Source: Takakia lepidozioides (Eukaryota > Plantae > Bryophyta). Taken from it: a DNA stretch of 64,000 bases. The notes beneath the pieces are model-generated. The model was not told the DNA's origin. It was given only the letters and a program-made list of their open reading frames with translations, and searched no databases. Both the position numbers and the translations under genes were made by a program. The stretch spans positions 39,308,001 to 39,372,000 of the forward strand of contig CM060731.1 in the NCBI GenBank assembly GCA_030704615.1, written 5' to 3'. Of the stretch, positions 6,824-58,000 are shown one piece after another. The stretch's first letter is position 1. Every line of letters starts with the position of its first letter.

Positions 6824-6825
6824 AG

Positions 6826-25037: not shown

Positions 25038-28000
25038 TTAGGATGTAGCAGAGTGGCCACGCAACGACGAATGTTGTGATGGGGCAGGAGCGCAGTTCTT
25101 CATGCCCAAGGGAACCAGAGCAGAGGCCTGAAAATCCCTGACATCAACCACTACCTCGTCAACCTTCAGTTCAGTGTTACCTTTCGGCCTCGCCTTGCCA
25201 AAATCTTGGTCCCCGTCGATCTTCCAATCCCAATCCCTGGCAGCAGATGGGGCACTCTCCTTCAGGGTGGCACGTCCACCTACACTGCCGTCGTCACATT
25301 GGTTCAAAACAGAGGGACCGGGCAAAGGACCAGGAGGGCGTTGCTGGAAACCTTTGCAGGATGGTTGTGGAGCAATAGGGGAAAGCTCAAAGTTTTCGAC
25401 CACAGAACAGGATGGGTCAGACCCTTGGGGGGATTGTTGCAGACTTGCTGGAATGCTGTATGCAGTTTGTAGATTTACTGATGAATGCAAGTCATCCTTG
25501 TAGCCAAAGCTGGAAGTTCCTGGGTTCTGAACAATCACCAACACTGGCCACTTGCCTCCTGCCTCTTGTCCAGCAGAAGTTGCCTGCAATACCCAACAGG
25601 TCACCAAAGCTCACAGTCAGTCGACATGAGACACAATTTGATGGCTGGGATCACTATTTGATGAATGACTTGTGTGTAGAGAGAGAGGGATAGGAACTTT
25701 AGAATGTTCATGGGAAGCCCAAAGAGCTCAATGGACAAAGAAAGGACAGGATGAGCAGATAGTCTGGCACATTGCCACCACACGAGTCAACATGGAGTGA
25801 GTATTTGAATTGGAGACCGTTGTGAAAACCCATAAGGCATTTCTGATCCTCGTAATGGAACCTTGCGGCAACAGTTGGCTGTCTATAGAAATGCAGTAAT
25901 GACCCCTTATCTCACATGGAGAGGACAATAAAAGAAGAGATGCTCTTCTACAGCCTGCCCTACCCTGTTTAGCAAGCATTGGAACGAGAGAATGTACTCA
26001 TAAGACGACGTTTGTCGTAGACTTGTGGCCATTGACCCTGCGCTCAGTTTGAGCGGAACACAAAGGGACAGAAACTACCTTTGTCAGGGGCTGACGCTGG
26101 TAGTTATGACTTACCTTGGAACAGACTTAATCTAAATTTTCCAGATATCCTCTAGAAATCCCTTAACACAAGCGTCAATCTGCTGTGAGTGGTTTGCCCG
26201 ATAACTAGGCCTGGGCTTTTGGCTCAGCCTCGAGACTTTCAAAGTTGGTAAACAGAGGTTCAGGCACAATATTCTTGATGGATTTGAAGAGGGCGTCTCT
26301 CTGATGAGAGTACCCCAGGACAATGAATCAGAAATTGAATATTGTCTTCAGGTTGCCCACACAACGGGCATTTGCAATCCCTCTTTCCTCTCTGCATCTG
26401 TTTGCTGTTCAAAGGTAGGCTTCCTGCCCTGAGTTTAAATTGCAGTCTAGTGTCAAGGGTGGGTAAACCCTTGAGGTCATCCATGATGGGCTCTCCCATG
26501 TCACAGACTGGAAACAGTCAGGGAAGTTTTCTGCCTAACTTCATTTCCATCAAACAATTTCCTGCCAACAGACATGGCTTTGGACACTACAGCCTCTAAG
26601 TCAGATTTATCCAACAGGGTCAAGACTTGCGGGAGAGAGAGAGAGAAAATGTACTCATAAGACGTTGTTTGCCGTAGCCTTGTGGCCATTGACCCCGCGC
26701 CCAGTTTGAGCGGGAACGAAAGGGACAGAACCTACCTCTGTCAGGGGCTGACGTTGGTAGTAAGACTTACCTCCATATAAAGAATTAATCCGGGTTTTCC
26801 AGATATCCTCTAGAAATCCCTTCACACAAGCATCAATCTGCTGTGTGTGATTTGCCCAAAAACTAGGCCTCAGGAGGGCCTGGGCTTTTGGCTCAGCCTC
26901 GAGACTTTCAAAGTTGGTAAACAGGGGTACAGACACAATTCCCTTAATAGATTTGAAGAGAGCGTCTCTTTGGTGAGAGAACCCCGGACACTGTATCAGA
27001 AAATGAATACTGTCTTCAGATTGCCCACACAACGGGCAATTGCACTCTCCCTTTCCTCTCTGCTTCTGTTTGCTGTTCAAAGGTAGGCTTCCTGCTCTGA
27101 GTTTAAATTTCAGTCTAGTGCCGAGAGTGGGTAGACCCTTGAGGTCATCCAAGATGTCCTCCCCCATGTCACAGACTGGAAACAAGTTCAGGGAAGTTTT
27201 CTGCCTAACTTCATTTTCATCAGACAATCTCATGGCAACAGACATGGCTGAGGACACTACAGCCTCCAAGTCAGATTTATCCAGCAGGGTCAAGACTTGC
27301 GGATCCAGGTCCAGGTCCTTGAGGATCTCTTCTACTCTCTTCTGCCAGGACTTAGCCTGTTTGACAGGGCGGTCCTGTTTCCAAGATATAGAGTCGATTA
27401 ACTTAGGATATCTGGTGTTGGGCATATGTTGCAGCTGACCCCACCATCTGACCTTGAATTCATCTCGTTGGGAGCTTAAGGACGGAATGCCAAACTCACC
27501 CCGAACAGCCACATTGGCTGTTTTGGAGCATGCTGACATACACTCCTTAAGCACCCCCACTTGAATGGATTCTAGAGACTTAGCCTGGTTGGAGTTATCA
27601 ACCCATACAGCAGATCCGTACTCCAAGGCAGGTCTAATAACGCGACAAAGCATGGTTTCCTTAACCTCAGAGTTGATCCCTCTGATTTAGTGAGCCCCAG
27701 AGCTTTGCCACATAGGATGGAAGTCTATGGTACCAAGAGAAACATCCTCATGACATTTCCAAAACAGGCTTCAGAGTTTGGTGAAATAAGACTCCAATTC
27801 TTGTGGACGCAGTAGAGAAGGAGAAGAAAAATAGGCTCCCAAAGAGGTGTAGGGGGAGAGCTATCAGTGGAATATGAAGAAGCCTCTGAACAACACTTAC
27901 CACTCCAATGTGCCACTCTTTGTAGTCCAGATCGTTGAAGTCCTTCTCATTCATTTCCTGGTGCCCAGACAAACAAGTACCCGTCAGCACAGTTCTGTCT

Positions 28001-38569: not shown

Positions 38570-40150
38570 CCCTGCACGTCAGCCCCTATAACCCCGCCCC
38601 GGGTTTAACCCTCACCCCCATGTAACCCTCTGTAATTCCGCCGAGTGTAACCCACACCACCATGTAACCCTCTGTAACCCATGTAACCCCATGACCCTCT
38701 GTAACCCTCACCACCATGTAACCCTCTATAACACCGCAGGGTGTCACCCCCACCCCTATGTAACCCCCGCCCCTATGTAACCCTCACTCCATGTAACCCT
38801 TTGTAACCCTGTGTAAAACCGCAGAGTGTCACCCTCACCCCTATGTAACCCTCTGTAACCCATGTAACCCTTTGTGACCCTCTGTAACCCATGTAACCCA
38901 TGTAACCCTCTGTAACACCGCAGAGTGTCACCCTCACCCCTATGTAACCCTCACTCCATGCAACCCTCTGTAACCCTTTGTAACCCATGTAACCCTCTGT
39001 GACCCTTTGTAACCCATGTAAACCCTCTATGACCCTTGTAACCCTCACCACCATGTAGCCCATATAACCCTCTATAACACTGAAGAGTGTCACCCTCACC
39101 CCTATGTAACCCTCTGTAACCCTCTGTAACCCGTTGTAATCCATGTAGCCCTCCGTGACCCTCTGTAACCTATATAACCCTCTATGACCCTCACCACCAT
39201 GTAAACCCTCTGTAACACCGCATAGTGTCCCCCTCACCCCCATATAACCCTCTATGACCCTCTGTAACCCTCACCACCATGTAACCCTCTGTAACCCATG
39301 TAACCCTCTGTAACACCGCAGAGTGTCACCCTCACCCCCATGTAACCCTCTGTGACCCTCTGTTACCCTCACCACCATGTAACCCTTTGTAACCCATGTA
39401 ACCCATGTAACCCTCTGTAACCAGGTATAACCCTCACCACCATGTAACCCTCTGTAATCCGTGTATCCCTCTGTAACACCACAGAGTGTCACCCTCACCC
39501 CTATGTAACCCTCACTCCATGCAACCCTCTGTGACCCTCTGTAACCCTCACCACCATGTAACCCTCTGTAATCCGTGTATCCCTCTGTAACACCGCTGAG
39601 TGTCACCCTCACCCCTATGTAACCCTCACTCCATGTAACCCTCTGTAACCCATGTAACCCCATGACCCTCTGTAACCCTTTGTAACCCATGTAACCCTTT
39701 GTTACTCCGCGGGGTGTAACCCTCACTCCATGTTATCCCGTATCATGTAACCCTTCCATTATGTGATCCCATGTAATCCCCACCATATGTAACCCGCATC
39801 GTGTAACCCCAATGCAAGCTTGTATCATGTTATCCCATGTACCCCTCTCCGTGTAACTCCAGTTCCTCGTGTAACCCCATCATCCCTGTAACCCTCTGCA
39901 CGTCAGCTCTTATAACTCCGCCTCGTGTAACCCTCATTGTGTAACTCTCACATTGTAACCCCACCATGTAACCCGGATACTGTGTCAATCCCCTCCGTGT
40001 AACCCCCGATCGTGTCACTCCTAGCTCGTGTCACCCCGGATCTTTATCCCCAATGCATGTCACCCCTGTTCGTGTAGCCCCTTGGTGCCCGGCAAAAATT
40101 GGTGGGCTCCGAGAGGTGTCAGATATTTTGAATTCAAACCTGGGTTACAC
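38570..40150 (+). repeat. TGTAACCC-based complex minisatellite
   Basis: Dozens of (A/C)TGTAACCC units arranged in higher-order blocks such as ACACCGCAGAGTGTCACCCTCACCCC. Confidence 0.95.
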
Positions 40151-40700: not shown

Positions 40701-41459
40701 ATGAATGTATTCATTCATTGGGTAAGTTCATTCATCAATGATCAAAATGCAAAATGTTAAATTTTTTCAAAAAGTTGCTTATAGGGTTGCTCATTAGGGT
40801 GCCAGCCGTGAACAGAGGGCTGGGACTTGGCCTCCTTTTGGGCTCTTTTTTGTCTCCCGCCATACCATATGTTTTCTTAGTATCCACGAGCCTAGAGCAT
40901 GGAACGCGATGATCGCAAGATGTGCAGGGGCGTGGGATGGAGGCTTTGCAGACCTATTCTTGAGCAAATGATGCAGGAAGGCGCGAGGGTAGGCACAGCG
41001 AGGCACAACACACTATGGTTTTCAGCACCGTCGGTATTTCACTATGAATTTCACTATTTGCCACTTTTCACTATTTCTTGCCACACCATGTAGCCGAGGG
41101 ATGGAACGCGATAATAGCAAGATATGCAGGGGCGTGGGATGGAGGCGTTGAGCAAATGATGCGGGAAGGAGAAGAGGAGGAGGAGATGAAACGAGGAGAA
41201 GCTCGCAACATTCTTGCGAGCTCGCTGTTCTTGGGAGAGTCAGCTTGGTCTTAGCAGGCCATGTTTCAAGCTCTGCCTACTTAGGTGCATCGTGGTGGTT
41301 CGATCTCACAGACCAATCCGACATTACCTGACTACAGGCACAAGCAGCACATACAAGAGGTCCTTTTGGGTTGATGGTCAGTCAAGTCATGACACAAGCT
41401 CAAGGACAATGTGGTGAGGGCACCTTCTTCTTTGACCTATTTCAGCCTGTTTTGCCCTC

Positions 41460-41740
41460 TCATATCATGTTTGTGTGCATTGCAATGCTTGTGCAAGCCT
41501 GGCAGCCCTTGAGAATGGCAAAGAGGTGCATGGGGATATCATCAAAGCTGGAATTGTACCTAATGTCATTCTAAACACTACCCTGGCAGCTTTGGAAAGG
41601 GGGAAAGAGGTCCATGGTGACATCTTCAGAGCTGGAATTGTACCAAATGTCATTCTAAACAATACCCTAGTGGACATGTATGCAAAATGTGGGTGCATCG
41701 AGGATGCAAAGGGAGTGTTCAACACTATGGCTGAACGAGA
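41460..41740 (+). pseudogene. PLS-class PPR fragment (5' half, split by the retroelement)
   Basis: GKEVHGDI..NTLVDMYAKCGCIEDAKGVFNTMAER; rejoins DVVS at 52907 onward. Confidence 0.85.
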
Positions 41741-42067
41741 TGTCAAGTTATTTTACCACTAGTGTGAAACTAGCTAGGAAATAGCTAGCTTTTACATATT
41801 GACATTTGGGATTGGCCCAAGTGTCAATCCAGGGGTCAAGGCAGATTTAGGCCCTGGAGTGGTTATCTTCACGGCAAGCGCGGGAGGCTCATCTTTCTCG
41901 AGTTGAGCCTCACCGCGCCTAGCTATGGCGCCGTAGTGTGGATTCCCCATGGCGTGGGGTGCACTTGGCTTGACTTGTATTTGAGTGATGAGGTTATATA
42001 TGCATGAGTTTATGCTTCAGCTTTGTGAGCTCGCATGAGCTTGTGCTTGTATTCTTCTTCTTTATCA
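41741..42067 (+). repeat. Terminal repeat A (327 bp)
   Basis: Appears identical by eye to 52391-52717. Confidence 0.95.
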
Positions 42068-42779
42068 CTCGAGAAAGATCAGCTCGTATCTGTGAGTGCC
42101 AGATACGAGTTAGTTGTAGCACTTGTGGTTTTTGCTTGAGAATGAGAGAAACCAAGTTGTTATGCAAGGAGCACCGTGGAGCTCTTGGTTGTTAGAAGCG
42201 GAGGCGATGTGGGTTACGAGGTGGTAAACCTTGGCATTCGATCTTCAGCTTCAGAGATGAAAGCACCATACTGTAGGTAATTCCAGAGCACCTTGATGGT
42301 TTCAGATTGTGTACATGCATGAGCAAGCACGATTGGGAAGAGGACCAGTCAAGAGCAGGTTATAGTGGCTTTGGTGGCAAAGCTGAGAACTGGACTTGGG
42401 AATGCGAGCTGTCATTGTGTGAAGGATTGCAAGACCAAGCGAAAGGGCTGATTTGGCTTGGGGCAAATCAGTGCACTTTGTGGAGTATGGTGAGATTGGG
42501 TTTCAATCTCGAGCTTCAGCATTGAGAGGGCTCTTGTCATGGCGAGAGCAGGGCTGGAACAGGAGCTAAGAGGTGCGGCAAGGCCATGGAATGTGCACCT
42601 AGGGTTACAGAGCTTGGAAGAAGAGCTCTTGCACCACAAGAGAAGTGTCTTGTGGCTGGAAATGTAAGCCTTAGGGTTTCAGGAGCTTGGCAAAGGCTAT
42701 GGAGTGCTTAGTCTTGTCTTAGAGAGCATCAAAGAGCCAAGGAGCCAAGATAGGGGGCTGATATCTCTTGTGTGAAGAG

Positions 42780-43170
42780 GTTGCATGTGTGGAGCATGTA
42801 TTCAGCTCATTGAAGCTTCCATCTTCAAGCTTGGAGGGCAAGCAAGGAAGAGGGAAGGGCTAACTTCCCTTATGTGAGGGCAATGCATGTGTGGAGCATG
42901 CTATCAGCCTGGTGAAGGCTTGCACTTTCAGGTGTGGGAGTGCAAGAAAGGAAGGAAGGGGCTGGTTTCCCTGTAGGGCATGTGGAGCATGCTTTCAGCA
43001 TGCTGAAGCTTGTATTTTCAGGTTTGTGGGTGCAAGAAATGAAGCAAAGGAGCTGATTCTTTTATGGTGAGAGTGGGGCATGTGTGGAGCATGCCTTCAG
43101 CCCATTGAGGCTCTTGTTTTCAAGCTTTAGAGAGCTAGAACGGAAGGTCTAGGGCTGGTTTCCACTTGGA
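42780..43170 (+). repeat. Diverged repeats of about 100 bp in the retroelement leader
   Basis: Recurrent GCATGTG(TG)GAGCATG near 42783, 42885, 42978 and 43078. Confidence 0.7.
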
Positions 43171-43604
43171 GTGAAAGAAAATCACTTGTAGGGCCTATGT
43201 GAGTTGGGGTTTCAACTTCAAGCTTGAAGGGAGCGCAACTCTTGAAGCAGCAGGTGTAGGGGGCTGGAAGAGGTTCTAAGACAGATGCTATGGCCAAGGA
43301 GAGTGCTTGAATGAGTGCTCACAAGGGCTGGGAACCAGCAGGGCTTGGTTGTTTGCCATTGAGTTTAGTGGCGTGTTTGGGTAGGCTAAGTGAGAAAGAA
43401 GGCTTGGTTTGTGGCAACCACCTCATGGCTTAGGGCTACTATGGTGGTGTGTGGGAGCCGAAAGAGCAAGGATACCTTGCTGATTTCCTCACAGCCACCA
43501 TAGCTCGGTGGAAAGAAGCCTAGAGTCCAAGAGACACAAACCCTAGCTTGGCGTGGCTAAACCCCTTGGAGAAATGGCTAAACTGCCAGAGCGGCCATGT
43601 GTGG

Positions 43605-44360
43605 GGCTGTGACAGGCTGTGGCGAGCTGTGACGGGCTGTGACGGGCTGTGACAGGCTGTGGCAAGCTGTGACAGGCTGTGATGGGCTGTGACAGGCTGT
43701 GCCCTGTGCCCTGTGGGGCTGTGACGGGCTGTGTCAGGCTGTGACAGGCTGTGCCCAGTGGCCTTTTGGGGCTGTGACGGGCTGTGCGGGGCTGTGACAG
43801 GCTGTGCTGAGCCTGTGGGGCTGTGACGGGCTGTGACAGGCTGTGCCCATGGCCTTGGGGCTGTGATGGGCTGTGAGGGGCTGTGACAGGCCGTGCCTGA
43901 GCCTTTGAGGCTGTGATGGGCTGTGACAGGCTGTGCCCTGTGCCCTATGGGGCTGTGCGGGGCTGTGACAGGCTGTGCCCTGAGGCCTGTGGGGCTGTGA
44001 CGGGCTGTGACAGGCTGTGCCCATGGCCTTTGGGGCTGTGATGGGCTGTGAGGGGCTGTGACAGGCCGTGCCTGAGGCCTTTGCGGCTGTGACGGGCTGT
44101 GAGGGGCTGTGACAGGCCGTGTGGCCGAGGCCTTTGGGGCTGTGACGGGCTGTGAGGGGCTGTGACAGGCCGTGCCCATGGCCTTTGGGGCTGTGACGGG
44201 CTGTGACGGGCTGTGACAGGCCGCGCCTGAGGCCTTTGGGGCTGTGACGGGCTGTGAGGGGCTGTGACAGGCTGTGCCTGAGGCCTTTGAGGCTGTGACG
44301 AGCTGTGAGGGGCTGTGACAGGCTGTGCCCAGTGGCCTGTGGGACTGTGATGGCTGTGAC
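43605..44360 (+). repeat. GGCTGTGACR 10-bp minisatellite in the retroelement leader
   Basis: Tandem GGCTGTGACA/GGCTGTGACG/GGCTGTGAGG units. Confidence 0.95.
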
Positions 44361-44648
44361 CAGTGAGCTGTGTGGGCCTGTGCTGGTCTGTGGTGGCCCG
44401 TGTTGACCTGTGGATGGCCTGTGCTGACTCGTGGAGGCACTGGTGGACTAAGGACTGGCATGTGGTCTGGAAGGCCGAATTTTGAAGCTCGTGGAGGGCG
44501 GTTTGAGGAGTATCTTCATGATATTCCCATGGTCATGCAAGTTCAAGTGTAGGCTATGTTAGGAACTTAGTATTCCAAACCATAAGCCGCAACAGGTTCT
44601 CTACCCGGTTACCTTGTGGAGAGGGATTAGGGACATGTTCATGACCGG

Positions 44649-46724
44649 TTGAGTGTCAACACGGAGGTGCCACTAGTTGCTGGGGACAGTGCCGGTTCGA
44701 GCACTAGCGATACTAGTGGGTACACGAGACGAGGTGTGCGGTTTAGGCCACCTTCACCTCCTGTGTCTTCCACGGAAGGTTCTGATTCGGATTGTGAATC
44801 AGGAGGGCTCATACCGGCGGTGCAAGTTGTTTCTTTGCCATTATTGTGGGACACAATGGAGGAGATGTATGGAGCTACCAAGGGGCCACGAAGGTACTCT
44901 GGGGCGGTGGGCACCATTGAGTTGGATGATTTTATCCAAGAGTTTGATAGTTGGTGTGATTTGCAGCAAATGCGCAATCCACAACTATTTACGCCGTTCA
45001 TGGCATGGAAAGGGCTGTTTCAGCACCTTGAGGGGCCGCCTATGGATGATTACCATGAGTTCAGGCGGGGGCATGAGGTTGAGATCGAGGAGTGGAGGAT
45101 GTACTGGTCACCCGACTATGTCTCCATCACTAGGGGCACTAGAGCCACGAGGGCAGTGGCTACACCTGCCGCTGCACCGGCAGCTTCAGCAAGCAGCAGT
45201 GGGACTGGTGGTACAGTAGCTACGACGTCCACCCAAGCCACTACCGCACCAGCACTAGCACCCGTGCCTGCCTTCAACCCTGTTGTGGAGTTCTTCGAAG
45301 AGTTGAGAGGGAACTACCAAGGGGTGAGGACAGAGAAGTTGCGGAGCTTGCAAGAGTTCCAACGGAAGCCGACCGAGAGCTTGAGGGAGGCTTTCACTCG
45401 CATGAGGCGCTTGATAAATGTAACCCAAGGGGTTACGGAAGCTCAGGCAGTCCAATTCTGGTATGGGATATTGGACAAGGAGCTGAGGAGAAGGGTGCGG
45501 GATGCAACTCTCCTACAAGCGGCCCAACCCACCTTAGCAAATGTGTTTTTGCTGGCAGAGCGGATAGAGCTCAACATGGTGGAGGAACGAGTGGTCATGG
45601 TGGGATTTGCTAAGGAGACACCACGGGGTAGTGGTGCTCCTAGCCAACCACTACCTCAACGTGCTCAAGGCAACAAGGGGGCTCAGGTGAAGCTCAGGGA
45701 AGGGCAGAGAGGACCTCAAATGCAGGGGTCTCTCCCTTCATTTGCTGGCCAACAACGGGCGGATGTGGTGTGCTGGACATGTGGAGGACCCCATGTCAAG
45801 AAGGATTGCCCAGAGGGAGGCAAAGGGTCGGCACATGCACAGCCTGCACAGTTGCAGTGTGGGCATTGTGGCAAGCACGGGCATGGAGAGGCCCAGTGTT
45901 ATAGTTTGCATCCTGAGTTGCGCCCAGGCCAGTTCCAAGGGAACAATGGTGGCCGGGGGCGAGGTGGAGCAGCCCAGAGAGGACGAGGTGGCCAGCCACG
46001 AGGTGTAGGCCAAGGGCAAGCTCAACGTGGCCAAGGACGCGGAGGTCAGGGTGTTGACCAAGGCATGGCCAACCGGCTTCAGCAGCTAGAGCAGAGGCTC
46101 GCTGCCATGGCTACAGCTCAGGTGGTACCGGCTCTAAGGCCGGATGGTCCACCTCCTGCTCCTGAGGGAGGAGATATGGGAGGCATGGGATTCATGTGTG
46201 GAGCAGCACTACCACTAGTGCAGGTGGAGTCTGCTGCAGCCGTGACTCGAGGAGCAGCACGAGTTCCTGAGCCACGAGGTGCAGAGGTGGAGTTGGATCC
46301 ACAGCGTGGGGAGGCAAGCCGTCAGGCTAGGCTTCCTCAGTCATTCACATTGGCGGAGACAGTGTCGACGCCATCCATGGCACCTAGTTCTCGCCCGACT
46401 GTTACCGAGGCGGAGGTTACTATGCCATTGGGGAGAGCTACACGGGTAGCACCACTACCTAGTGTTGCCAAGGCTACGGCAGCTAGTGTGCTGCTAGGAG
46501 CGGCCACATCTGTGTGCCAGGCTCCATTGTTCTCGGCTACCATGATTGCGACGCCGGGGGTAAGACCAGCTGAGGTGTTCAGGCTGGCAGCTACACTCTG
46601 TGAGAGTGGGGAGGTTACTTCATCTTCTGCGGAGATAGTGGGAGGTGTAGTGCCGGAGGGATCCTCGGATTTGAGGGTCAAGACTGCCACGGCGGCGCCA
46701 TGGCAAGCTGCAGCTGCCAGTTGA
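44649..46724 (+). CDS. Gag with two zinc knuckles
   Basis: Capsid-like region (FQRKPTESLREAFTRM), CWTCGGPHVKKDC and CGHCGKHGHGEAQC, RGG-rich tract; first ATG near 44856. Confidence 0.85.
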   Translation: MSVNTEVPLVAGDSAGSSTSDTSGYTRRGVRFRPPSPPVSSTEGSDSDCESGGLIPAVQVVSLPLLWDTMEEMYGATKGPRRYSGAVGTIELDDFIQEFDSWCDLQQMRNPQLFTPFMAWKGLFQHLEGPPMDDYHEFRRGHEVEIEEWRMYWSPDYVSITRGTRATRAVATPAAAPAASASSSGTGGTVATTSTQATTAPALAPVPAFNPVVEFFEELRGNYQGVRTEKLRSLQEFQRKPTESLREAFTRMRRLINVTQGVTEAQAVQFWYGILDKELRRRVRDATLLQAAQPTLANVFLLAERIELNMVEERVVMVGFAKETPRGSGAPSQPLPQRAQGNKGAQVKLREGQRGPQMQGSLPSFAGQQRADVVCWTCGGPHVKKDCPEGGKGSAHAQPAQLQCGHCGKHGHGEAQCYSLHPELRPGQFQGNNGGRGRGGAAQRGRGGQPRGVGQGQAQRGQGRGGQGVDQGMANRLQQLEQRLAAMATAQVVPALRPDGPPPAPEGGDMGGMGFMCGAALPLVQVESAAAVTRGAARVPEPRGAEVELDPQRGEASRQARLPQSFTLAETVSTPSMAPSSRPTVTEAEVTMPLGRATRVAPLPSVAKATAASVLLGAATSVCQAPLFSATMIATPGVRPAEVFRLAATLCESGEVTSSSAEIVGGVVPEGSSDLRVKTATAAPWQAAAAS

Positions 46725-47209
46725 TGGAGCTGCCAGCTAGGCCAGCCATTGAGCGCGCCATGGTGACACCTGGAGTTGTCATGTTAGACAACCAGGATGG
46801 CATTTTCTGTTTGAGTGGACCGGCAGGCAAGAGGTACCGGCCACTGCGAGTCTTGTTGGACTCGGGAGCTCAGCCACTGATGCTGGGCAGAGCTGCTATT
46901 GCAGGCTTGGGCCTCACGGAGGCGGATATGGAGCCTTGTCCTTTCCAGATACAGACGTCTCTGGGAGGATCGGAGCAGGCTCGGGGCATGACACGGCATG
47001 AGTTGGCTATCAGACTACGGCCGGATCACCCTACAGATGGCTCAGTGATGCGAGCCAAGGCCATTGTGACAGACGCAGTCTCATACGATGTCCTGGTTGG
47101 TGGGGCAGTGTTGTACCCCATGGGCTTCACCCTGGATTTTGGGAGGAGTCAGCTTCCTATAGGCCTGCATGGCAGTCAGGGGAGGGCCGGTGTGCGCAGC
47201 TCCCTGTGA
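46700..47209 (+). CDS. Aspartic protease
   Basis: VLLDSGAQ catalytic motif; YDVLVG. Confidence 0.85.
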   Translation: MASCSCQLMELPARPAIERAMVTPGVVMLDNQDGIFCLSGPAGKRYRPLRVLLDSGAQPLMLGRAAIAGLGLTEADMEPCPFQIQTSLGGSEQARGMTRHELAIRLRPDHPTDGSVMRAKAIVTDAVSYDVLVGGAVLYPMGFTLDFGRSQLPIGLHGSQGRAGVRSSL

Positions 47210-48819
47210 CGTTCATAGGAGGAGTTGCGGTTGCCCAGCGAGGCAAGATGCCGACACTAGCAGCATTCACAGCGGCAGTGAGTTGGCCTAGAGAGTTGCT
47301 TGAGGGCAATGCTCATTCAGAGGATGTACCACCTCCGGGAGAGCAGGATGACATGTATGGTATGGCGGAGTTGCCTACCATGGTTGCTCAGACTCCATTG
47401 TGGGGCACGAGCAAGGATTTGCAGCGGGATGCTGATCGACGGGTGCAACAAGCCTGGGTGGAGGCTTTTGTACCGTCAGGAGAGGAGGAGAGTGTGGGGA
47501 TTGCACCAGGACCACCTCAATTGTCTCCATTGGACACCACACCTATTGTGTGGCAGTCTCCGGATGAAGGCATTTGTCTTCTGGACTTGTTTGGCGGGAT
47601 CAGCACCGGATTGGCTGCTGTGTTACAGGCAGGTGTACGAGTTCGGCGTTACCTGTATGTGGAGAGGGATGAGACTGCACGACGCGTTTCACTTCGCCAT
47701 GTTGCTCAGTTGGTGCAGCGGTACCCTGAGTTGTTGTCGGTGTCTGCAATTCGTGGATATCAGCAGGCCTTGCCAGCAGACATTTCGTTGCTGGGGGCGC
47801 AGGATTTGGAGCGGGTTGGCTCCATTGATCTGGTAGTGGCAGGTTGGCCCTGCCAAGGGCATTCATCAGCCGGGCATGGCAATGGATTGCGAGACTCGAG
47901 GTCGGGTCTGTTTTGGGAGATGGTGCGGGTTTTGCGCCACTTGCAGCTTCATCAAGCTGTATCTCCAGCATACATCTTGGAGAATGTGCCACTGATGGGC
48001 GATTCTCGGGCCAGGGTGATGGCCAGTGTGCATCAAGTCCGGTCGTGGCTTGGGTCAGCAGTGTTGCTAGATGCAGCTACAGTGGGGTCACGGGCTCATC
48101 GTCCACGGCTATGGTGGACTAACATGATGCCACCCGCACTGCTCAAGCGTGCATTTGATGGGGTGCAGCGGCCAGCACATCTCACAGTGGATAACATTCT
48201 GGACACAGGGAGGCAGTCTCAACGTGTGAGACACGATGACCGTTCGCCTTTGGCAGTGGTCAACAAGGTGGGTCAACCACGAGCAGCATTACCTACACTG
48301 CTCAGCTTCCCAGGATCGCATGCTTTCCGGGATAGTGGACCTGGCCTCCTGTGGGATGCTCAGTTGCAGCAGTTAGTGGAGCCTAATGCTGACGAGCGTG
48401 AGCGGGCAATGGGTTTTACCACTGGTACCACGGCGGTGTCGTCTCTTTCTGAGGCATCACGTCGTCAAGTGTTGGGGCAAGCAATGGATCTCAATTGCTT
48501 GACCTGGATTATCAGCTTGGCTCTAGCTGAGCAACGCAGAGTGCGGAATACACTTCCCTCAATGGTCTCTCTGCCTACCGAGACGGTACAGGCAGTGAGT
48601 GGGGGCGAGCATATGAGGACCACGGGGTGCATGCATCCATGGCACACGTGGGAGGTGCTCGAGGTTCAGAGGGAGTTGGCAGCCAAGGCGGCTGTGATGG
48701 ATGAGGTTGGGGATTCTTCTCGAGTTGAGGAGGTCCTCAAGGATGAGATGATGGGGCAGGATGATGCCTTGTCATTGACTGAGCAGGTAGGGAGTACTGC
48801 TCAAGAGGTTGCAGCATAG
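47206..48819 (+). CDS. C5 cytosine DNA methyltransferase, DNMT3-like
   Basis: Motifs in canonical order: I LDLFGGIS, II YVERD, IV GWPCQ (Cys at 47851), V SGLF, VI ENV, VIII HRPRLWWTN, IX ERAMGF, X RRQVLGQAM. Confidence 0.92.
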   Translation: MTFIGGVAVAQRGKMPTLAAFTAAVSWPRELLEGNAHSEDVPPPGEQDDMYGMAELPTMVAQTPLWGTSKDLQRDADRRVQQAWVEAFVPSGEEESVGIAPGPPQLSPLDTTPIVWQSPDEGICLLDLFGGISTGLAAVLQAGVRVRRYLYVERDETARRVSLRHVAQLVQRYPELLSVSAIRGYQQALPADISLLGAQDLERVGSIDLVVAGWPCQGHSSAGHGNGLRDSRSGLFWEMVRVLRHLQLHQAVSPAYILENVPLMGDSRARVMASVHQVRSWLGSAVLLDAATVGSRAHRPRLWWTNMMPPALLKRAFDGVQRPAHLTVDNILDTGRQSQRVRHDDRSPLAVVNKVGQPRAALPTLLSFPGSHAFRDSGPGLLWDAQLQQLVEPNADERERAMGFTTGTTAVSSLSEASRRQVLGQAMDLNCLTWIISLALAEQRRVRNTLPSMVSLPTETVQAVSGGEHMRTTGCMHPWHTWEVLEVQRELAAKAAVMDEVGDSSRVEEVLKDEMMGQDDALSLTEQVGSTAQEVAA

Positions 48820-51800
48820 CAACCACGGGACGCGTCCTCTACCTCTAAGCCCACTGGACTTAAGGTTGTAGTTACGGAGGACAATTGGGAGCCTGACATT
48901 GGACCCATTGTCACCGGAGGAGAGAGACGACGTATACGGCGGTTCCTGAGGGCTTACAGGAATTGCTTTGCCTTCAGTTTGAAGGACTTGGGAGCACTGA
49001 AGGGTCAAGAGATCCGTATTGAGTTGGCCACTGACACGCCAATCTTTCGGAGACCCTATAGATACAGTGACATGGAGAGGTCTTTGATTCAGATGAGGAC
49101 TCAAGATCTCTGGAGGCAGGTTTGGTGGAGCTCTCTGGTGGAGAGTATGCTTCAGCCACAGTGATGCCAGCCCAAGAGGATGTCTATGGCAATTGGACGG
49201 AGAGACGTATGTGCGGTGATTACCGGCCTGTAAATCGTCAGACCAAGTCCGATAAGTATGCCATGCCAACACCAGAGGAGATCTTTGATGCCATCGGGCA
49301 TGCTAAGGCCTTTAGCACTTTGGATTTACGATCCGGATATCACCAGTTGCCAATCAAGGAGGCGGACAAGCAGAAGACGGCATTCTGGGGGATCAATGAG
49401 CACGGCAAGGATTGCCTATATCAGTGGCGGTTCTTACCATTTGGGCTTAAGAATGCTCCTGCAGAGTTTCAGAGAGTCATGGATAGGATTCTAGCAGGGG
49501 TGGACTTTGCTCGGTGCTACATAGATGACATCATCATCTTTAGTGTTACGATGGAGGAGCATGAGAGACACCTTCAGGTGGTATTGGAGCGCTTGAGAGC
49601 GCACGGATTGAAGTTGCATCCGGGGAAGTGCAAGTTTTTCCACAACCAGATTGAGTATCTGGGTCACATGATATATCCTGGAGGATTGGGGGTACAGCAG
49701 ACTAAGGTAGAGGCCATTGCACAAATTCCAGGCCCCACGGATGTGAGCCGAGTTCGAGCTTTCATGGGGTTGGCAAACTATTATAGACGGTTTGTCAAGG
49801 GATTTAGTACCATTGCAAAGGCTCTAACCAAGCTGACCAAGGTGGACCAGGAGTGGCAGTGGGAAGATGAGCAGGAACGAGCTTTTCAAGAGCTCAAGGC
49901 GAGGTTGACCTCGGCGCCTATCTTGAGACGACCTATCAGGGGGCGTCCCTTTCAGCTGCATACGGATTGGAGCATGCTGGGGCTTGGAGCGGTGCTCACA
50001 CAGGTGGATGATGAGGGAAGAGAGTTCGTAGTGGCTTACGCTAGCCGCTCGAACAACGCTGCAGAGGCTAAGTACAGCTCATATGAGGGAGAGTGCTTAG
50101 CTGCAGTGTGGGCCGTGGCACACTTCAGGTGCTATCTATACGGCAATCTTTTCACCCTTGTCACGGATCACCAGCCACTCAAGTGGTTGATGGAGTCAGA
50201 CAAGCTTACGGGGAAGCTTGCACGGTGGGCACTTATACTCCAGGAGTATGACTTTCAGGTTGTGCATCGACCGGGTTTGGTCAATCGGGATGCGGATGGA
50301 TTGAGTCGCAATCCATGCATGAGCCAGCAGGATGACACTGGAGCTCGGTGGCATGGTGAGACGGACGAGGAGATGGTGCCGGGATGGCACGCATCTGCAT
50401 TTTTGTGTATCTTGGCATCGGGAGGTCAGATTGGACCTACAACAGGGATGACTGTAGACGGAGTGTCTGAGGACCCTGAGGCTAGTGATGAGCTAGGTGG
50501 TGCCAGAGATATACATGAGGATTTGGCTGTGTTGGACTACCTCCGCACGGGAGACACGGCAGCCATTGTGACTGCCAGGGAGAGGGATCGGATCCTGCAA
50601 CGAGCCAAGAGGTTCAAGTGGGAGGGGATACACCTACTTCGAGTGTGGGAGGATGGTCGGGTGAGGATTGTGCCTCACCCCACACAGCGTGCACGGTTAG
50701 TGCGGCATGCCCATGAGGAGTTGGGGCATTTTGGAGTGCGACGCACTCACAGTTTACTGCAGGGGCAGTATTGGTGGCGTGGTATGCATACAGAGGTGCA
50801 ACAGTTTGTGGCTAGGTGCATGGTGTGTGACAGGGTGCGTGCTTCATTCAACGCCCCTACACCACAGTTGCATCCTTTACCTATCATGGGATTGGGCTAC
50901 AGGTGGAGTCTTGACTTCGCAGGACCGTTGCCACTGACTATGCGCCACCACAGATATGTGTTGGTGATGGTGGAGCACTTCTCCAAGTGGATTGAGTTGG
51001 TTCCATTGCCTGACAAGGCTAGTGAGGGGGCTGCGTATGCATTCTTGGATCGTGTGCTTAGCCGATTTGGTGCTCCAGCTGAGGTACTCACGGACCAAGG
51101 GAGAGAGTTCTTGGGGGAGTTTCAGGCTTTGTGTGATAAAGCCTTGATAGACCACCGCACCACTTCTCGGGATCATCCTGAGGCCGATGGCTTAGCAGAG
51201 AGAGTTGTTCAGACGGTGAAGAGGGGTTTGCGCAAGTATGGCTTGCAAAGGGACACCTAGGAGATTGGGATCTTCAGGTTCCTTGGTTAGCCATGGGCTA
51301 CAGATTCAGCAAACAAGCATCACTTGCCTCCTTCTCACCATATTTCCTTCTCTTTGGCCGAGAGCCGGATTTGCCTGCAGCCATTCGTAGGGACACTGCT
51401 CAAGTCCTTAACCTTGACGATCCGGACGTGTGGGTACGTGCATGTGATCAGCGTGCAGAGTTGTTCAAGAAAGTCATGCCCATGGCTTTTGAGAACCTTG
51501 CCATTGCACAGCACCGTGATACGTTGAGGTATGCCACTATACGTGGTGGAGGATATCGTCCTGGGGTTCGGAGGTTTAGCCCTGGTGACTATGTTTATTT
51601 GCAGCAGACTGCTCCTATGACTCTGGATGTTACTGCAGGGCGTGTTATTCTGAGGGTTCGAGAGGTGTTGCCCTCAGGGGTCCTGATCTTGGAGGGTCGG
51701 GATGGCATGACTTGGAAGGACCATGTGCGTAATTGTGCGCCATGTCACCTTCCCAATGTCGATGGCAGAGTTGACCCAAACTTGGCAGTGGTACCTGCAG

Positions 51801-51952
51801 GTTTGAGGTGCATGCTCTGTGGGTCTGCCAAAGGGGCAGCCACCATGCTAGTGTGTGATCGATGCTCAAGGGGTTGGCATATGGGATGCTTGACACCACC
51901 TCTTGAGAAGGTTCCTGACGGAGATTGGTTGTGTCCACACTGCTTGGGATAG
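48820..51952 (+). CDS. RT-RNase H-integrase-PHD finger
   Basis: LPFGLKNAP, YIDD, HTDWS, TDHQPL, HHCC, DDE core (SLDF, TDQG, AER), C4HC3 PHD at 51809-51943; two single-base frameshifts (about 49110 and 51248). Confidence 0.92.
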
Positions 51953-52201
51953 TGGCAGTGGACATGACTGGAGGCAGCTAACAAGACATGGGAGGCCAAG
52001 CTCATAGGAGTCAATACATGAGATCCCAAGCTCAAGTTCACAGGTTGCAAGACGGCGACTAACGATGGGGCAACTCTTGCACCCGGCCTCTTGATCTATC
52101 GAGTTTGAGTGTAGTAGGGATAGTGGTGGAGGACTTAGTGAGGCTATGGTCACTATCACATCTTGTGGCTACCTGGACTTAGAGGGACCTAAGCACCAGC
52201 T

Positions 52202-52210
52202 AGGGGGGCG
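52202..52210 (+). promoter_or_regulatory. Polypurine tract
   Basis: AGGGGGGCG, then AT, then the TG start of repeat B. Confidence 0.75.
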
Positions 52211-52212
52211 AT

Positions 52213-52906
52213 TGTGTGGACTAGTGACTGCCATAGTGGGCAGAGTAGTGGCAGCCTAGTGACTGACTAGTTGTAGCCTAGTGGTTGGACTAGTGGTAGA
52301 CTAGTGGTATACTAGTGTGTGGTGTGCACATGTGTTGTGTGGTTTTGGACAGCGATGTAGTTGTGTAGCGATATGTATGCGCACGACAGCTGTCAAGTTA
52401 TTTTACCACTAGTGTGAAACTAGCTAGGAAATAGCTAGCTTTTACATATTGACATTTGGGATTGGCCCAAGTGTCAATCCAGGGGTCAAGGCAGATTTAG
52501 GCCCTGGAGTGGTTATCTTCACGGCAAGCGCGGGAGGCTCATCTTTCTCGAGTTGAGCCTCACCGCGCCTAGCTATGGCGCCGTAGTGTGGATTCCCCAT
52601 GGCGTGGGGTGCACTTGGCTTGACTTGTATTTGAGTGATGAGGTTATATATGCATGAGTTTATGCTTCAGCTTTGTGAGCTCGCATGAGCTTGTGCTTGT
52701 ATTCTTCTTCTTTATCATTGTGTGGACTAGTGACTGCCATAGTGGGCAGCGTAGTGGCAGCCTAGTGACTGACTAGTTGTAGCCTAGTGGTTGGACTAGT
52801 GGCTGGACTAGTGGTAGACTAGTGGTATACTAGTGTGTGGTGTGCACATGTGTTGTGTGGTTTTGGACAGCGATGTAGTTGTGTAGCGATATGTATGCGC
52901 ACGACA
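52213..52906 (+). repeat. B-GC-A-T-B terminal repeat block
   Basis: B 52213-52388 (176 bp), GC, A 52391-52717, T, B' 52719-52906 (188 bp; one SNP and one extra 12-bp unit). Confidence 0.93.
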
Positions 52907-55710
52907 GAGATGTGGTGTCGTAGAGTGCGATGCTTGCAGGGTATGCACAACAGGGATGTGGGATGGAGGCTTTGGAGACCTATGAGCAAATGATGGGGGA
53001 AGGGGTTCAGCCCGGCCACATCATGTTTGTGTGCATTGTAGGCCTTGCAGCCCTGGAGAAGGGCAAAGAGGTGCATGGGGATATCATCAAAGCTAGAATT
53101 GTACCTAATGTCATTCTAAACACTGCCCTGGCAGCTTTGGAAAGGGGGAAAGAGGTCCATGGTGACATCTTCAGAGCTGGAATTGTACCAAATGTCATTC
53201 TAAACAATACCCTAGTGGACATGTATGCAAAATGTGGGTGCATCGAGGATGCAAAAGGAGTGTTCAACACTATGGCTGAACGAGATGTGGTGTCGTGGAG
53301 TGCGATGCTTGCAGGGTATGCACAGCAGGGACGTGGGATGGAGGCTTTGGAGACCTATGAGCAAATGATGGGGGAAGGGGTTCAGCCCCACCACATCATG
53401 TTTGTGTGCATTGCAGGCCTGGCAGCACTAGAGAAGGTGCATGGGGATATCATCAAAGCTGGAATTGTACCTAATGTCATTCTAAACAATGCCTTGGCAG
53501 CTTTGGAAATGGGGAAGGAGGTCCATGATGACATCTTTAGAGCTGGAATTGTACCAAATGTCATTCTAAACAACAGTATGGCTGAACGAGATGTGGTGTC
53601 GTGGAGTGCGATGCTTGCAGGGTATGCACAACAGGGACGTGGGATGGAGGCTTTGGAGACCTATAAGCAAATGATGCGGGAAGGGGTTCAGCCCGGCCAC
53701 ATCATGTTTGTGTGCATTGCAGGCCTGGCAACCCTGATTTAAATCAGGCACCTCAACCATGACCACAGCTTCTAAAAGAGGGAGAGAGAGTCCATAATGC
53801 CTGTTCTGGCTCTTCTGGGCATGTGAAGATTCTTTGTGAGGCAGGCAGACTGAAAGAGGCTCTACAACCTTTAAACCAAGGAGCATTTCAGCAGATTCAG
53901 ATACATGTATGTCTATCTCTTGCTTAAGTGCATCAAAATGAAGGGTCTGGAAGCTGGAAATCAGATTCACGCCAAGTGTTTTTCTCCTCAACACCCTTGT
54001 GAACGTGTATGTTAAGTGCAGGAGCATCATGAATGCACACCAAGTGTTCAACGGACTTTGATCACGTTGAATATAATGTTGGCAGGATTTAACATGGATG
54101 TGGTAGGAATGCTTTGGAGACCTACGAGCAAATGTTGCGCGAAGGGCCAATGAAGCCCAACCACATCACCTTTGTTGGTGTTTGCAATGCGTGTGCAAGC
54201 CTGGGAGCCCTGGAAAAGGGGAAAGAGGTCCATGCTGACATCGTCAAAGCTGGAATTGTACCAGATGTCATCCTAAACTGATAGGTTTGCCAAATGTGGG
54301 TGCATTCAGGATGTGAAGGGTGAAAGCATGAAAGAGATAGACCAAAATACTGTCACAAATGGATTTTGACAGACTGTGGTCTTCAAAGTACTCTAGTGCA
54401 TTCTTATCTTACATTGAACTTCCTTGAAAATGACATGGGAAGAAAGATGATGTTGTAAGGAAAACAAAACACTTTCAATCTGCAAACGGGTATGTTTTGA
54501 TGGTACCTGTGAAGTATTGTGCGAGGCGGTCGTAGATGTAGCACGCTACATCCTCGAACATGAAAAGCCAAAAGTACCCCTAAAACGTACCAATTGCACG
54601 CATGAATTTTTTTCATGCATGCTTGAATACCTGCAAAATAGTCTCAGAAGGAGCCGTCGAGTACCTGCTATGTATGAAAGGTCTAATGATTTTTGTATAT
54701 GCAACTACTAATTTATAAAGGCCATGGATTTAAGTACCTGAGAATGTTATTATTTAAGAGTGACTCCTGAAGAAGATGTGTTCCAAACCACAGTACCTAG
54801 TGCTACGTGCAATTGAAACCTCCAAACAATGGTGAAATTTTGAACTAGATTGTTTTCGCCGGCAGGTTTATTTCCATTTTTTTTAATTTTCTTATTTTTT
54901 TCGTTTAATCTTGGACTGTTGGATGCGGGACTCGGACTTATGGCACGATTGTGTTTTGCCATTATTTTTATATTATCATCTACCACCACTACACTACGCC
55001 ACAAAACTACTCCCAAGTACCCATTATCCGCCAGTTTTGGCCTACCTCTATCATGCTTACACCCTGAAGGGAGTATTCCACACTCTGGCTGAACGAGATG
55101 TGGTGTCGTGGAATGCGATGCTTGCAGGGTATGCACAGCAGGGGCACGGGATGGAGGCTTTGGAGACCTATGAGCAAATGATGTGGGAAGGGTGAAGCCC
55201 GACCACATCAAGTTTGTGTGCGTTTGCAGTGCGTGTGCAAGCCTGGCAGCCCTGGAAAAAGCAAAGAGGTGCATGGTTGCATCGCCAAAGCTAGAATTGT
55301 ACCAGATGCGATTCCCTGTGGAAGAAAAACTTGCATGGATAGATGGTCAACTAAAGGCTGCAGCTGCAGCGGCACAGTTTATAAAACCAGGCACCTCAAC
55401 CATGACCACAGCTTCTTAAAGATGATCAAGAGAGGGAGTCCACAATGCCTCTTCTGGCTGCACTTCTAGGCATGTGAAGATGCTTTGTGGCAGGCAGACT
55501 GACAGAGGCTCTACAGACTTTAGACCAATGAGGCATTTCAGCAGATTCAGGTACGTATGTCTGTCTCTTGCTTAAGTGCATCAAGATGGAAGGTCTGGAA
55601 GCTGGAAAGCAGATGCACACTCACATTATCCAAAGTGGATTCACGCCAAATATTTTTCTACTCAACACCTTAAGTGCAGGAGCATCATGGATGCATACCA
55701 AGTGTTTAAC
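52907..55710 (+). pseudogene. Tandemly shuffled PLS-class PPR fragments
   Basis: Repeated DVVSWSAMLAGYAQQG/GKEVH motifs; TAG at 52921; duplicated N-terminal LCEAGRL piece (about 53745-54050 and 55390-55705). Confidence 0.85.
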
Positions 55711-55718
55711 GTTTTATT

Positions 55719-56675
55719 ATGGCAATGCCTTCTTGGCTTCTACCCCGTTACAGTTTTACTTGGAAGAGACAGATTTTTGAGCCAATGTATAAAATAAGAG
55801 CAACTGTCACAGATGCATTGCTCTCGGGTTACAACAAACTTCTGGAGGCCAAATTGTTTAAGGCTATCGCACCTGAGTTTGTAATCTGTGTTCCTTTCCA
55901 GTGGCATGTCATGCGTACCAATGGTAACGATCTGCAGACGCTATTCGGGTTGGTGCAAGAATGGTACACTCAGGACGCCCGAGGGATGGTGTTCACAGAG
56001 AATCGAGATCTTGTGGACGTGGTTGTCATCCCTATTGTCTTCAAGTAAGTAATTTGAGCGTTGACTAATCATGTTGGGTTACACTCCTCTGTTCTACACT
56101 GAGTTGCACTAGTTTGGAGTTGCACTACTGACTAGTTGTGTTACACCGTTTAGAGTTACATAACAAAGGGTTACACTACTGGGTTACACCACAATGGGTT
56201 TCATTGGAGAGTTTTTTTTTCTATTCTGACGTTACGGCTTTGTTTGTGTTACAGTGATCACTAGAGTGTTGTTGTTTTAGAGCGTCGAGGTCGGATAGTA
56301 CATTTGGACTCCCATAAAACCATGGCCCGACCCAAACTCATTGAAGGAATTTTGCAAAATTTTGCCATAACGTTCTTTGATTGCATGCCTGGATCTAATG
56401 ACTTCAGTTACGTCATGGAGAGGATGGAATGGTTTGAGGCCAGTGTCCCCCAGCAACGGAGCTGTTGGGAGTGCGGCTATTACGCACTTTGTTTTGTGCA
56501 ATTTTACTTGGAGTGGAAGTTCAATGTGAAAACCACAGAAGATCGAACCCATCATAGGCGGGCGTTTACTGCAAGTTGGTTCGACGAGTCAACCATGATA
56601 GCTTCCCATACTCATATGATTAGTTGGCTGTGCGACGAGATAGACAAAGACTTGGTCAAATGGCCAAAGAAATAA
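55719..56675 (+). pseudogene. Ulp1-like (C48) SUMO protease, transposon-type
   Basis: Splicing intron 56045-56254 gives VVIPIVFNDH*SVVVL..HLDS..VPQQRSCWECGYYAL (His-Asp-Gln-Cys); TAG at 56262 where Trp is expected. Confidence 0.8.
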
Positions 56676-56699: not shown

Positions 56700-58000
56700 G
56701 CTTCTATGTGGTTTGTTCGTAACACTTCACAGTTTGGGTTTCATGAAATGGGCTTACATGGGGTTACACCTTATTGGGTTACATGAAGTGGAGTCATAGA
56801 CAAGTACTTGGGTACACCTTGGGGCCCTGGGGCCCTGGGGCAATGGGCTTACACTCTGTGGGTTCACACATAAGTGATGGGTTACACCGTGCCGGGTCTC
56901 ACAATGTGGGGTTACACTTATGGGTTACATGCAATGGGCCTCTCAGGGTTACATGGTTGGGCCTTCCTGGCTATGTCAGGGTCACGTAGATGAAACAGTA
57001 TAGTTTCGTGGCATGTAACCCCACCTCGACTATGCGCACTTGTTTTTTTTTTTCTTTGTTTTTTCGCACTGAAGTTTTTGTGCACTGAAGTTCTTGGAGT
57101 TATACTACATGGGGTTACATACATGAGGGCTATGTACAATGGGTTACATACGATGGGGTCACAATAGTGGGGGTAACATCTGGTCGGGCTACATACTTCT
57201 TGGAGTTACAACACTCTGGGTTACACTCACTCAAGAGGGTTACACAATTCTTAGTTACACTGTGCACAGTGACAGTGGGCAGGGTTGCCTATACAAGGGC
57301 TACGTGTCGTGGGGATACATAAGATGGGGTGATGTAGCATCGGGGTTTACAACATGCACCCAAATTGTACAATGGGTTACATGCGATGGGGTGACAACAG
57401 TGGGGGTTACATGTGGTCGGGATACATACTTCTTGGGGTTACACAACAACAAGTTACACTCCGGAGGGCTACACTGGTCCATAACATAGGTTGAACGGAA
57501 TGATTATCTATCTCATGGATTACACGTCCATGGGTTACATATACAGGGTGGGTTACACACAAATTGGGTTACACATAGAGGGGTTACACATACAAGGTGG
57601 GATACACCTAAATTGGTTACACATAGAGGGGTTACACATATATGGGTTACACATGCAGGGTGGGTTACACATAGAGGGGTTGCACATACAAGGGCTAGTG
57701 TTGGCGACTAAAGGTGCTCGACTTCAGCGTCTTCCCACTCTGTATTGAAGGGTCGTGTAACCGCGACATACTAACCCAGACCCTGTAGTCACACTGTAGC
57801 CATCGACTTATAATTCTCAGAGTTACACCACTGACAACAATATTCTATGGGGTTACATACTGGGTTACACTGTTGATAGTTACATTGGAGTTACACCACA
57901 ACTGAAGAGGGTCACACTATGTTACGTTATGGAACCCCAGATGGTGTAACCCTACGTTGTGTCACCCCGGCCCATGGGTGTCCCATTGAGTGGGTTACAT
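56700..58000 (-). repeat. Dispersed GGGTTACA array (reverse orientation of 38570-40150)
   Basis: Many GGGTTACA(C/T) motifs; also present in the Ulp1 intron at about 56075-56190. Confidence 0.9.

Follow-up and report, generated by a model that had tools for sequence, protein, structure and literature searches.

Retrotransposons that carry a Dnmt3-like cytosine methyltransferase are described, in the accessible text of de Mendoza et al. (2018; PMC5890265), from Klebsormidium nitens (KnitGypsy-Dnmt3) and from Symbiodinium (SymbioDIRS-Dnmt3). KnitGypsy-Dnmt3 holds the domain in its Pol open reading frame (ORF), has DIRS-like repeats and shows purifying selection, and for SymbioDIRS-Dnmt3 de novo CG methylation was shown in yeast. 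The name 'streptophyte Gypsy-DNMT3' also occurs in PMC12344493 and in bioRxiv 10.64898/2026.05.21.726589, where the accessible parts give the hosts as 'streptophytes' only. What such methylases do for their retrotransposons has been open since 2018, and the earlier hosts are hard to work with. Here we describe a Ty3/gypsy element with a DNMT3-like domain in a stretch of 64,000 nucleotides from the bryophyte Takakia lepidozioides (assembly GCA_030704615.1, contig CM060731.1, positions 39,308,001 to 39,372,000 of the forward strand). This whole stretch is called the window, and coordinates are counted from its first letter.

The window element resembles KnitGypsy-Dnmt3, as far as the accessible text goes, in its Gypsy domains, its intronless and unpermuted Dnmt3-like domain, its split repeats in the order A-body-B-A-B and the purifying selection on its DNMT; thus a methylase-bearing Gypsy with such repeats is already known. 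It differs in that the DNMT of KnitGypsy-Dnmt3 lies in the Pol ORF, whereas in the window family it ends the ORF of Gag and protease (PR) before a conserved stop, and in that its hosts are land plants. The PHD finger, the self-priming signal and the explanation of the repeats set out below are absent from the accessible account of KnitGypsy-Dnmt3. SymbioDIRS-Dnmt3 likewise has a Dnmt3 domain within a retrotransposon and A-body-B-A-B repeats, but with a tyrosine recombinase and a DIRS reverse transcriptase (RT), and as an independent acquisition, where the window element has a DDE integrase (IN).

Our literature search, for which Repbase, most closed journals, preprint supplements and the supplementary figures of PMC5890265 were beyond reach, found no account of a land-plant Gypsy-DNMT3 and no explanation of the repeats, in keeping with the sequence-only reading of this stretch, which knew of no characterised land-plant case. 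'Marchantia' is absent from the text of PMC5890265, and the accessible portions of PMC6317226, PMC11244446, PMC6453930 and PMC11982613 describe no land-plant elements of this kind. New against the literature found are the distribution across Marchantia, Calypogeia and Sphagnum, the placing of the DNMT on the capsid side with a likely readthrough, the covarying self-priming signal, the polypurine tract (PPT) before repeat B, the long terminal repeat (LTR) composed of B and A, and the loss of CpG at silent sites. The caveat of the sequence-only reading, that novelty would fall if the element nested within described streptophyte elements, applies in part: domain order and A-body-B-A-B repeats are common with KnitGypsy-Dnmt3, as known from the accessible text, and the name occurs in the 'streptophyte' papers of 2025-26, but the DNMT is not in frame with RT.

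The methyltransferase domain and its reading frame

An uninterrupted C5-methyltransferase domain lies in the frame 47002-48819 (+), and its six motifs follow each other in canonical, unpermuted order: FGG at 47590, PCQ at 47848, ENV at 47980, RPRLWW(TN) at 48100, ERAMGF at 48400 and LGQA at 48472. It sits between the protease (LLDSGA, 46853) and RT (YIDD, 49518). Both the motif order and the uninterrupted state at this place agree with the sequence-only reading, as does the DNMT3-like rather than DRM-like character. A Pfam scan matched the frame to PF00145 (E 9e-13). Against solved structures, DNMT3A ranked top with a single-sequence query (1.7e-11) and with a 63-sequence profile (1.3e-23), ahead of DRM2 (3e-9) and HhaI (2e-6). 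A structure model built from the alignment (predicted local distance difference test, pLDDT, 94.7; a single-sequence fold of pLDDT 37 was discarded) matched DNMT3A in Foldseek (E 3.3e-19) and DNMT3B in VIA-align (Z 28.4, root-mean-square deviation 2.6, 277 aligned), with the CpG methylase M.MpeI next at Z 25.1, both above DNMT2, and DRM2 at Z 9.7 over only 131 residues. The domain thus has the canonical I-X motif order and a modelled DNMT3 fold, and lacks the circular permutation of the DRM type. Since DNMT3A or DNMT3B came first in the sequence, profile and fold rankings, the domain is, by sequence and model, DNMT3-like and not DRM, an assignment made by score ranks against solved structures, the trees given below being free of host DNMT3, DRM and DNMT1 sequences. 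PpDNMT3b (PMC6453930, accessible text) has the same unpermuted DNMT3-type catalytic domain, also in non-seed plants, but it is a host gene, while the window DNMT is intronless and lies inside a retroelement. Among 249 homologous protein segments, a set biased towards open frames, the catalytic Cys is kept in 242, the Glu in 243 and the two Arg in 239 and 237. The Pfam scan of the element frames found no chromatin reader belonging to the DNMT itself.

The sequence-only reading had placed the methylase in an intact gag-pol polyprotein, and this did not hold: the coding region is scattered over six frames, with breaks near 46719, 47136, 49111 and 51247 and an in-frame TAG at 48817 that parts DNMT from RT. 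At the four breaks many contigs of the same sample differ by an indel, as do other samples where covered, and among the best-supported variant contigs listed there is no indel at the stop. The four breaks lie at short base runs, the repeats are near-identical, as in a young copy (comparison among contigs only), and the breaks may be either real mutations or assembly errors. The window copy is therefore a frame-broken, defective member of an abundant bryophyte Ty3/gypsy family, multi-copy in the host by read depth and by the number of variant contigs. Its coding features are as follows.

44856..46724, +: gag with two CCHC knuckles (45771, 45858), from Pfam and frames; broken near 46719; begins where Marchantia P0122 does
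46604..47209, +: aspartic protease frame, LLDSGA at 46853, from Pfam and frames; broken near 47136
47560..48520, +: DNMT3-like C5-cytosine methyltransferase domain, from motifs, Pfam, profile and fold
48817..48825, +: stop TAG followed by CAA CCA, a likely readthrough signal, from conservation in the family, protein C-termini and tobacco mosaic virus (TMV)-type context
48820..51952, +: pol with RT (YIDD 49518), RNase H (RH) and integrase (HHCC 50712-50828; DDE core 50910-51212); broken near 49111 and 51247
51809..51943, +: C-terminal PHD finger of the integrase (PF00628, E 3.6e-11)

The stop at 48817 was considered as a decay mutation and this was rejected, because it is conserved across the family: from the end of DNMT to the span before RT, none of 58 sequences runs open in frame; exactly one stop is present in 21, and TAR-CAA-Y stands at the corresponding position in 45 (57 of 80 homologous loci plus the window, one further locus being excluded as too far apart). 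The layout of KnitGypsy-Dnmt3, with DNMT in the Pol ORF and in frame with RT, is accordingly not that of this family. Gag-PR-DNMT without RT was also seen in 44 of 383 related proteins, most of which end 80-150 residues past the domain; Marchantia P0122 (1278 aa, from a cluster of 18) ends at the point that matches the window stop, and the nearest pol relatives are separate RT-RH-IN-PHD ORFs of about 1030-1080 residues. Judged from these frames, the element is naturally laid out as Gag-PR-DNMT3, stop, RT-RH-IN-PHD. In plants, readthrough of about 10% is known for the TMV-type context CAA-UYA (PMC2754532, accessible text). The window context, TAG-CAA-CCA, resembles it and has no ATG there, and the conserved stop is likely read through occasionally to make pol; a search for the CARYYA readthrough motif, limited in the same way as above for Repbase and most subscription journals, gave no relevant paper. 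Because this conserved stop precedes RT, the methylase is placed on the Gag side, and it would be produced together with Gag, in larger amount than RT and integrase.

Split repeats and predicted priming signals

The element runs from 41741 (TGTC) to 52906 (GACA) and is flanked by a 4-bp target-site duplication (TSD), GAGA. The order gag, PR, RT, RH, IN is that of Ty3/gypsy, and the ends are of the TG..CA type with a TSD within the usual 4-6 bp; in place of two complete direct LTRs at its ends it has split repeats. The empty-site joint 41736>52907 was found in three runs (X1, X2 and X12). The parts outside the coding region are listed here.

41737..41740, +: left TSD GAGA, within a PPR-like repeat; uninterrupted paralogous sites at 53274, 53580 and 55087, and the empty-site joint
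41741..42067, +: repeat A1, from TGTC to TCA; forms the second half of the true LTR; 327 bp identical to 52391-52717
41891..41903, +: candidate self-primer, placed in the loop of a hairpin close to where the transcript is predicted to start; 13-bp complement of 42067-42079
42067..42079, +: primer-binding site for the predicted self-priming, directly after A1
43590..44370, +: tandem array of 10-bp units in the leader (families D1, D2 and D4)
52202..52211, +: PPT abutting B1, AGGGGGGCGA; a closely similar tract stands before B1 in moss-associated loci
52212..52388, +: repeat B1, with GACA at its end; forms the first half of the true LTR; one mismatch and a 12-bp indel against B2
52385..52394, no strand: B|A palindrome GACA-GC-TGTC, where integrase is predicted to cut; each half equals one end of the element
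52391..52717, +: repeat A2, 327 bp identical to A1
52718..52906, +: repeat B2; the A2|B2 joint is an LTR end joined to an LTR start; a contig of X6 exits at 52906 into a different flank
52907..52910, +: right TSD GAGA, pairing with the left

The same arrangement was found in related loci. The A-body-B-A-B layout is complete in L049, L055 and L059 and present in its 3' part in L009, L016 and L051; the internal palindrome is exact in L003 and L016 and has variant forms in L009, L049, L051, L055 and L059; and the joint of LTR end to LTR start between A2 and B2 is exact in L009, L016, L055 and L059 and ragged in L049 and L051. Besides the window, all six full-length loci tested (five distinct sites) have a 4-bp TSD, for which reason a 3-bp reading of the window duplication (AGA) was rejected. 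The PPT ends exactly at the start of B1, both in the window and in moss-associated loci. Since the PPT lies before B1, the true LTR is B+A, and the comparison of these sequences shows that insertions begin and end at the internal palindrome GACAGCTGTC. Split repeats were not recognised in more distant loci of 40-50% identity; for split or permuted LTRs in Marchantia the literature search, with Repbase and most subscription journals beyond reach, gave no paper; and ordinary LTR finders would likely miss such repeats. Rfam gave no match at E<=1 in 41500-53000, and thus detected no known ribozyme in the repeats.

An origin of some copies from one-LTR circles was also considered. Nine loci end at B1 without A2-B2, three of them with a TSD; these A-body-B copies were left out of the support, since one of them (L035, 13482) has its right flank in common with a B-A-B copy (L051, 8171); the shared flank is due to assembly collapse or to recombination between B1 and B2, which explains at least one A-body-B copy.

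No tRNA-type primer site follows A1. Instead, the 13 bp at 42067-42079 are complementary to 41891-41903 within A1, a length of pairing reached in 0 of 5000 shuffles, and sister contigs exit A2 at 52717 into this same primer-binding sequence. In the moss-associated family both sites have a different sequence while the pairing is kept, with five double-sided differences, and the self-primer follows a TATA box and lies some 170 nt short of the end of A. The signal matches the geometry of Tf1-type self-priming. Tf1/Sushi and Tcn1 chromoviruses likewise have no tRNA primer site and a predicted self-priming from the 5' end, and plant Tcn1 and TAR are predicted self-primers (PMC6317226, accessible text), but the former carry a chromodomain and terminal LTRs of the ordinary kind and lack a methylase, where the window element has a PHD finger and split repeats. 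A perfect 10-bp hairpin at 42080-42110, with no Rfam match, abuts the primer-binding site.

Relatives, selection and CpG content

The family has close relatives among liverworts and mosses: homologues of the DNMT with 58-77% identity were found in Marchantia, Calypogeia, Sphagnum and Riccia, and the window groups with bryophyte homologues (support 100) in a quick DNMT tree of 49 rows; another DNMT tree, without the window row, kept 171 of 243 segments. In the RT-RH tree the window joins Marchantia and Calypogeia (support 96) within an 81-row group that also holds Closterium and other Klebsormidium proteins (support 88). The K. nitens protein P0182 (PR-DNMT-RT-RH-IN, 45% identical over DNMT) falls outside on a long branch in this tree, which has a thin outgroup and no clade test, and is absent from both DNMT trees owing to a length filter. 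From its domains P0182 appears to be one of the elements of PMC5890265; its id does not occur in the accessible parts of three supplements. Fused PR-DNMT-RT forms are thus known from Klebsormidium (P0182), and further from Closterium (DNMT-RT) and other contigs. In a clade of 90 proteins (support 99) the DNMT lies instead between RNase H and integrase, and the domain has therefore moved or been captured twice. Altogether 262 representatives, after clustering at 50%, reach E<=1e-30.

Several observations on these relatives may be added. The RH-DNMT-IN Gypsy-PHD clade comprises P0160, P0168-P0170, P0248-P0377 and others, with one distant match from Monoraphidium. In five loci (L057, L060, L066, L072, L078) a more distant DNMT-RT fragment apparently sits, as a nested insertion, within an inverted DNMT-bearing element. 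Full-length Gag-PR-DNMT frames of Marchantia (1278-1281 aa), of which several lie on the V sex chromosome, carry the annotation of hypothetical host genes; copies of Gypsy-DNMT3 entered in this way, as host 'hypothetical' or methyltransferase genes, inflate DNMT counts. Because Marchantia has near-identical open Gag-PR-DNMT frames (18 records, several full length), the question of what the methylase does is testable in a genetic model.

Between the window and moss-associated loci (61 of 80 kept at a cut-off of pN<0.3) the DNMT shows pN 0.20, pS 0.74 and dN/dS of about 0.07, similar to RT (pN 0.16, pS 0.79), so that on these sequences the DNMT is under purifying selection between families; sister copies neither lack the domain nor show it in neutral decay at this level, either of which, on the sequence-only reading, would have spoken against it. 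At fourfold sites of the window element C stands before G in 23 of 435 cases and before H in 176 of 721 (ratio 0.22, 4.6-fold rarer), as compared with 34 of 189 and 105 of 431 (ratio 0.74, 1.35-fold) in one neighbouring DNMT-free Gypsy. This silent-site loss of CpG fits CG self-methylation, and host methylation could yield the same pattern. The neighbouring element, a Ty3/gypsy at 592-7419 (-), has LTRs that are 98-99% identical, an SH3_Tf2-1 domain, a chromodomain-like tail, a tRNA-type primer site and several frame breaks, and no methylase.

Proposed cycle, rival explanations and surroundings

We propose that the transcript starts in A1 and that base pairing of its 5' end with the stretch following A1 would self-prime reverse transcription, while plus-strand synthesis would be primed at the PPT; given these two primer sites, a linear cDNA of the form B-A-body-B-A is predicted. 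Its ends would join into a circle, leaving the A|B joint at 52717/52718, and integrase would cut GACA/GC/TGTC in one LTR, lose two bases and insert A-body-B-A-B with a 4-bp duplication. A circular cDNA is thus the intermediate that we infer from the repeats. The PHD finger would probably direct the intasome towards unmodified H3 tails, as known for PHD classes. The protease would free the DNMT, present per particle in about the same amount as capsid, and the DNMT, whose activity and packaging are predicted, would methylate the cDNA, so that a new copy would arrive resembling host heterochromatin. Foamy virus integrase cleaves palindromic junctions of 2-LTR circles (PMC1180852, accessible text) and so resembles the predicted DDE integrase cutting a conserved palindrome in circular cDNA, but there the cut at the joined ends restores the linear form, whereas the cut predicted here lies inside the LTR and makes a permuted insertion the normal product. 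The finding bears on two-LTR circles as real integration precursors, since all full-length copies tested resemble an opened circle. The whole model, comprising Gag-PR-DNMT3 with readthrough pol, CpG methylation of the cDNA and circle insertion through the LTR palindrome, we hold to be slightly on the probable side. The wider proposition is plausible, though short of probable: that a green-lineage Ty3/gypsy clade, in Marchantia too, self-primes, has as its normal substrate an end-joined circular cDNA opened by DDE integrase at an LTR-internal palindrome, carries a Gag-fused DNMT3 at capsid level, and inserts its copies CpG-methylated.

Several points weigh against this model. In yeast the domain from Klebsormidium showed no detectable methylation, which its authors regard as inconclusive (PMC5890265, accessible text). 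Most moss-associated copies have CAA-CCC-ATG after the stop, which is off the TMV hexamer and offers a restart codon, and a complement of at least 10 bp was found in just 7 of 17 moss-associated A1 copies, in 5 of them at the place given above. Two cDNAs joined as a dimer and cut at two palindromes would yield a product no different from that of a circle. Among moss-associated copies dN/dS is higher for DNMT than for RT (0.60 vs 0.40 at dS 0.1-0.3; 0.66 vs 0.27 at dS 0.3-1), and no more than 41 of 68 loci have an intact PCQ; this may be explained by dead-copy decay at CpG-rich Arg codons, and would equally be expected under weaker constraint. The CpG contrast compares one element with one in a host whose background CpG o/e is already 0.55, and its ratio becomes about 0.34 when set against C before C/T alone. 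The 80 loci were drawn from a few metagenomes that are related to each other, and the same insertion recurs among them.

The methylase might instead act on chromatin, at the insertion site or on resident copies, entering the nucleus with the intasome or freely and limiting its own family. The PHD finger on the integrase would suit such a role, the moss host DNMT3b is a de novo heterochromatin methylase (PMC6453930), and de Mendoza et al. (PMC5890265) list host-benefit and insertion-site roles, each in the accessible text; we nevertheless consider it unlikely, for the conserved stop puts the DNMT with Gag and not with integrase, and Pfam gives it no chromatin reader of its own. More improbable still is that the domain is kept for something other than DNA methylation, such as binding or methylating the element's RNA or shielding the cDNA by binding, even though Gag-level abundance suits a structural role, the Klebsormidium domain was inactive in yeast (PMC5890265, accessible text) and DNMT exceeds RT in dN/dS among copies. 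Speaking for methylation are the catalytic Cys, Glu and both Arg, each kept in more than 95% of the 249 segments, the fold closest to DNMT3 and M.MpeI, above DNMT2, the CG methylation by the related DIRS-borne Dnmt3 (PMC5890265, accessible text) and the CpG loss at silent sites.

With regard to the repeats, elements with tyrosine recombinase have A-body-B-A-B too (legends of Fig. 1e and 4c in PMC5890265, accessible text), and a DIRS/Ngaro-like cycle could be envisaged in which the transcript runs from A1 to B2, the B|A joint serves as template for the ends, and the PPT and the self-priming signals are there by chance or as vestiges. We give this hardly more than a slim chance, a shade below that of a role on chromatin: the PPT stands exactly at the start of B1 and the pairing signal exactly at the end of A1 in two families with different sequences, the A2|B2 joints of L049 and L051 are ragged as from end-joining, and the 4-bp TSDs go with a DDE integrase (rve, H2C2), no recombinase being matched in the six element frames scanned. 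That the methylase is a decaying passenger captured from the host is very improbable; the window copy is broken and many moss-associated copies have lost catalytic residues, but between families synonymous divergence is saturated while non-synonymous divergence is low, and the DNMT is kept in elements of Marchantia, Calypogeia, Sphagnum, Closterium and Klebsormidium and in the large RH-DNMT-IN clade. The sequence-only reading had itself inferred that the enzyme is packaged into particles and methylates the cDNA or the insertion site; the PHD finger, the conserved stop, the self-priming signal and the split repeats had escaped it.

Around the insertion site lie tandem, partly broken pentatricopeptide (PPR) repeats of the PLS type (40900-41740 and 52907-55320). 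Elsewhere in the window there are degenerate satellite arrays rich in TGTAACCC on opposite strands (38595-39744 and 56846-57691), several long inverted repeat arms in 13200-18700 (40-129 bp, 77-93% complementary, 3-5 kb apart), and fragments with DUF6570 (10018-10674), with a weak match to Ulp1 protease (56265-56675) and, by eye and with no Pfam match, with a LINE-like C-terminal frame (26655-27686).

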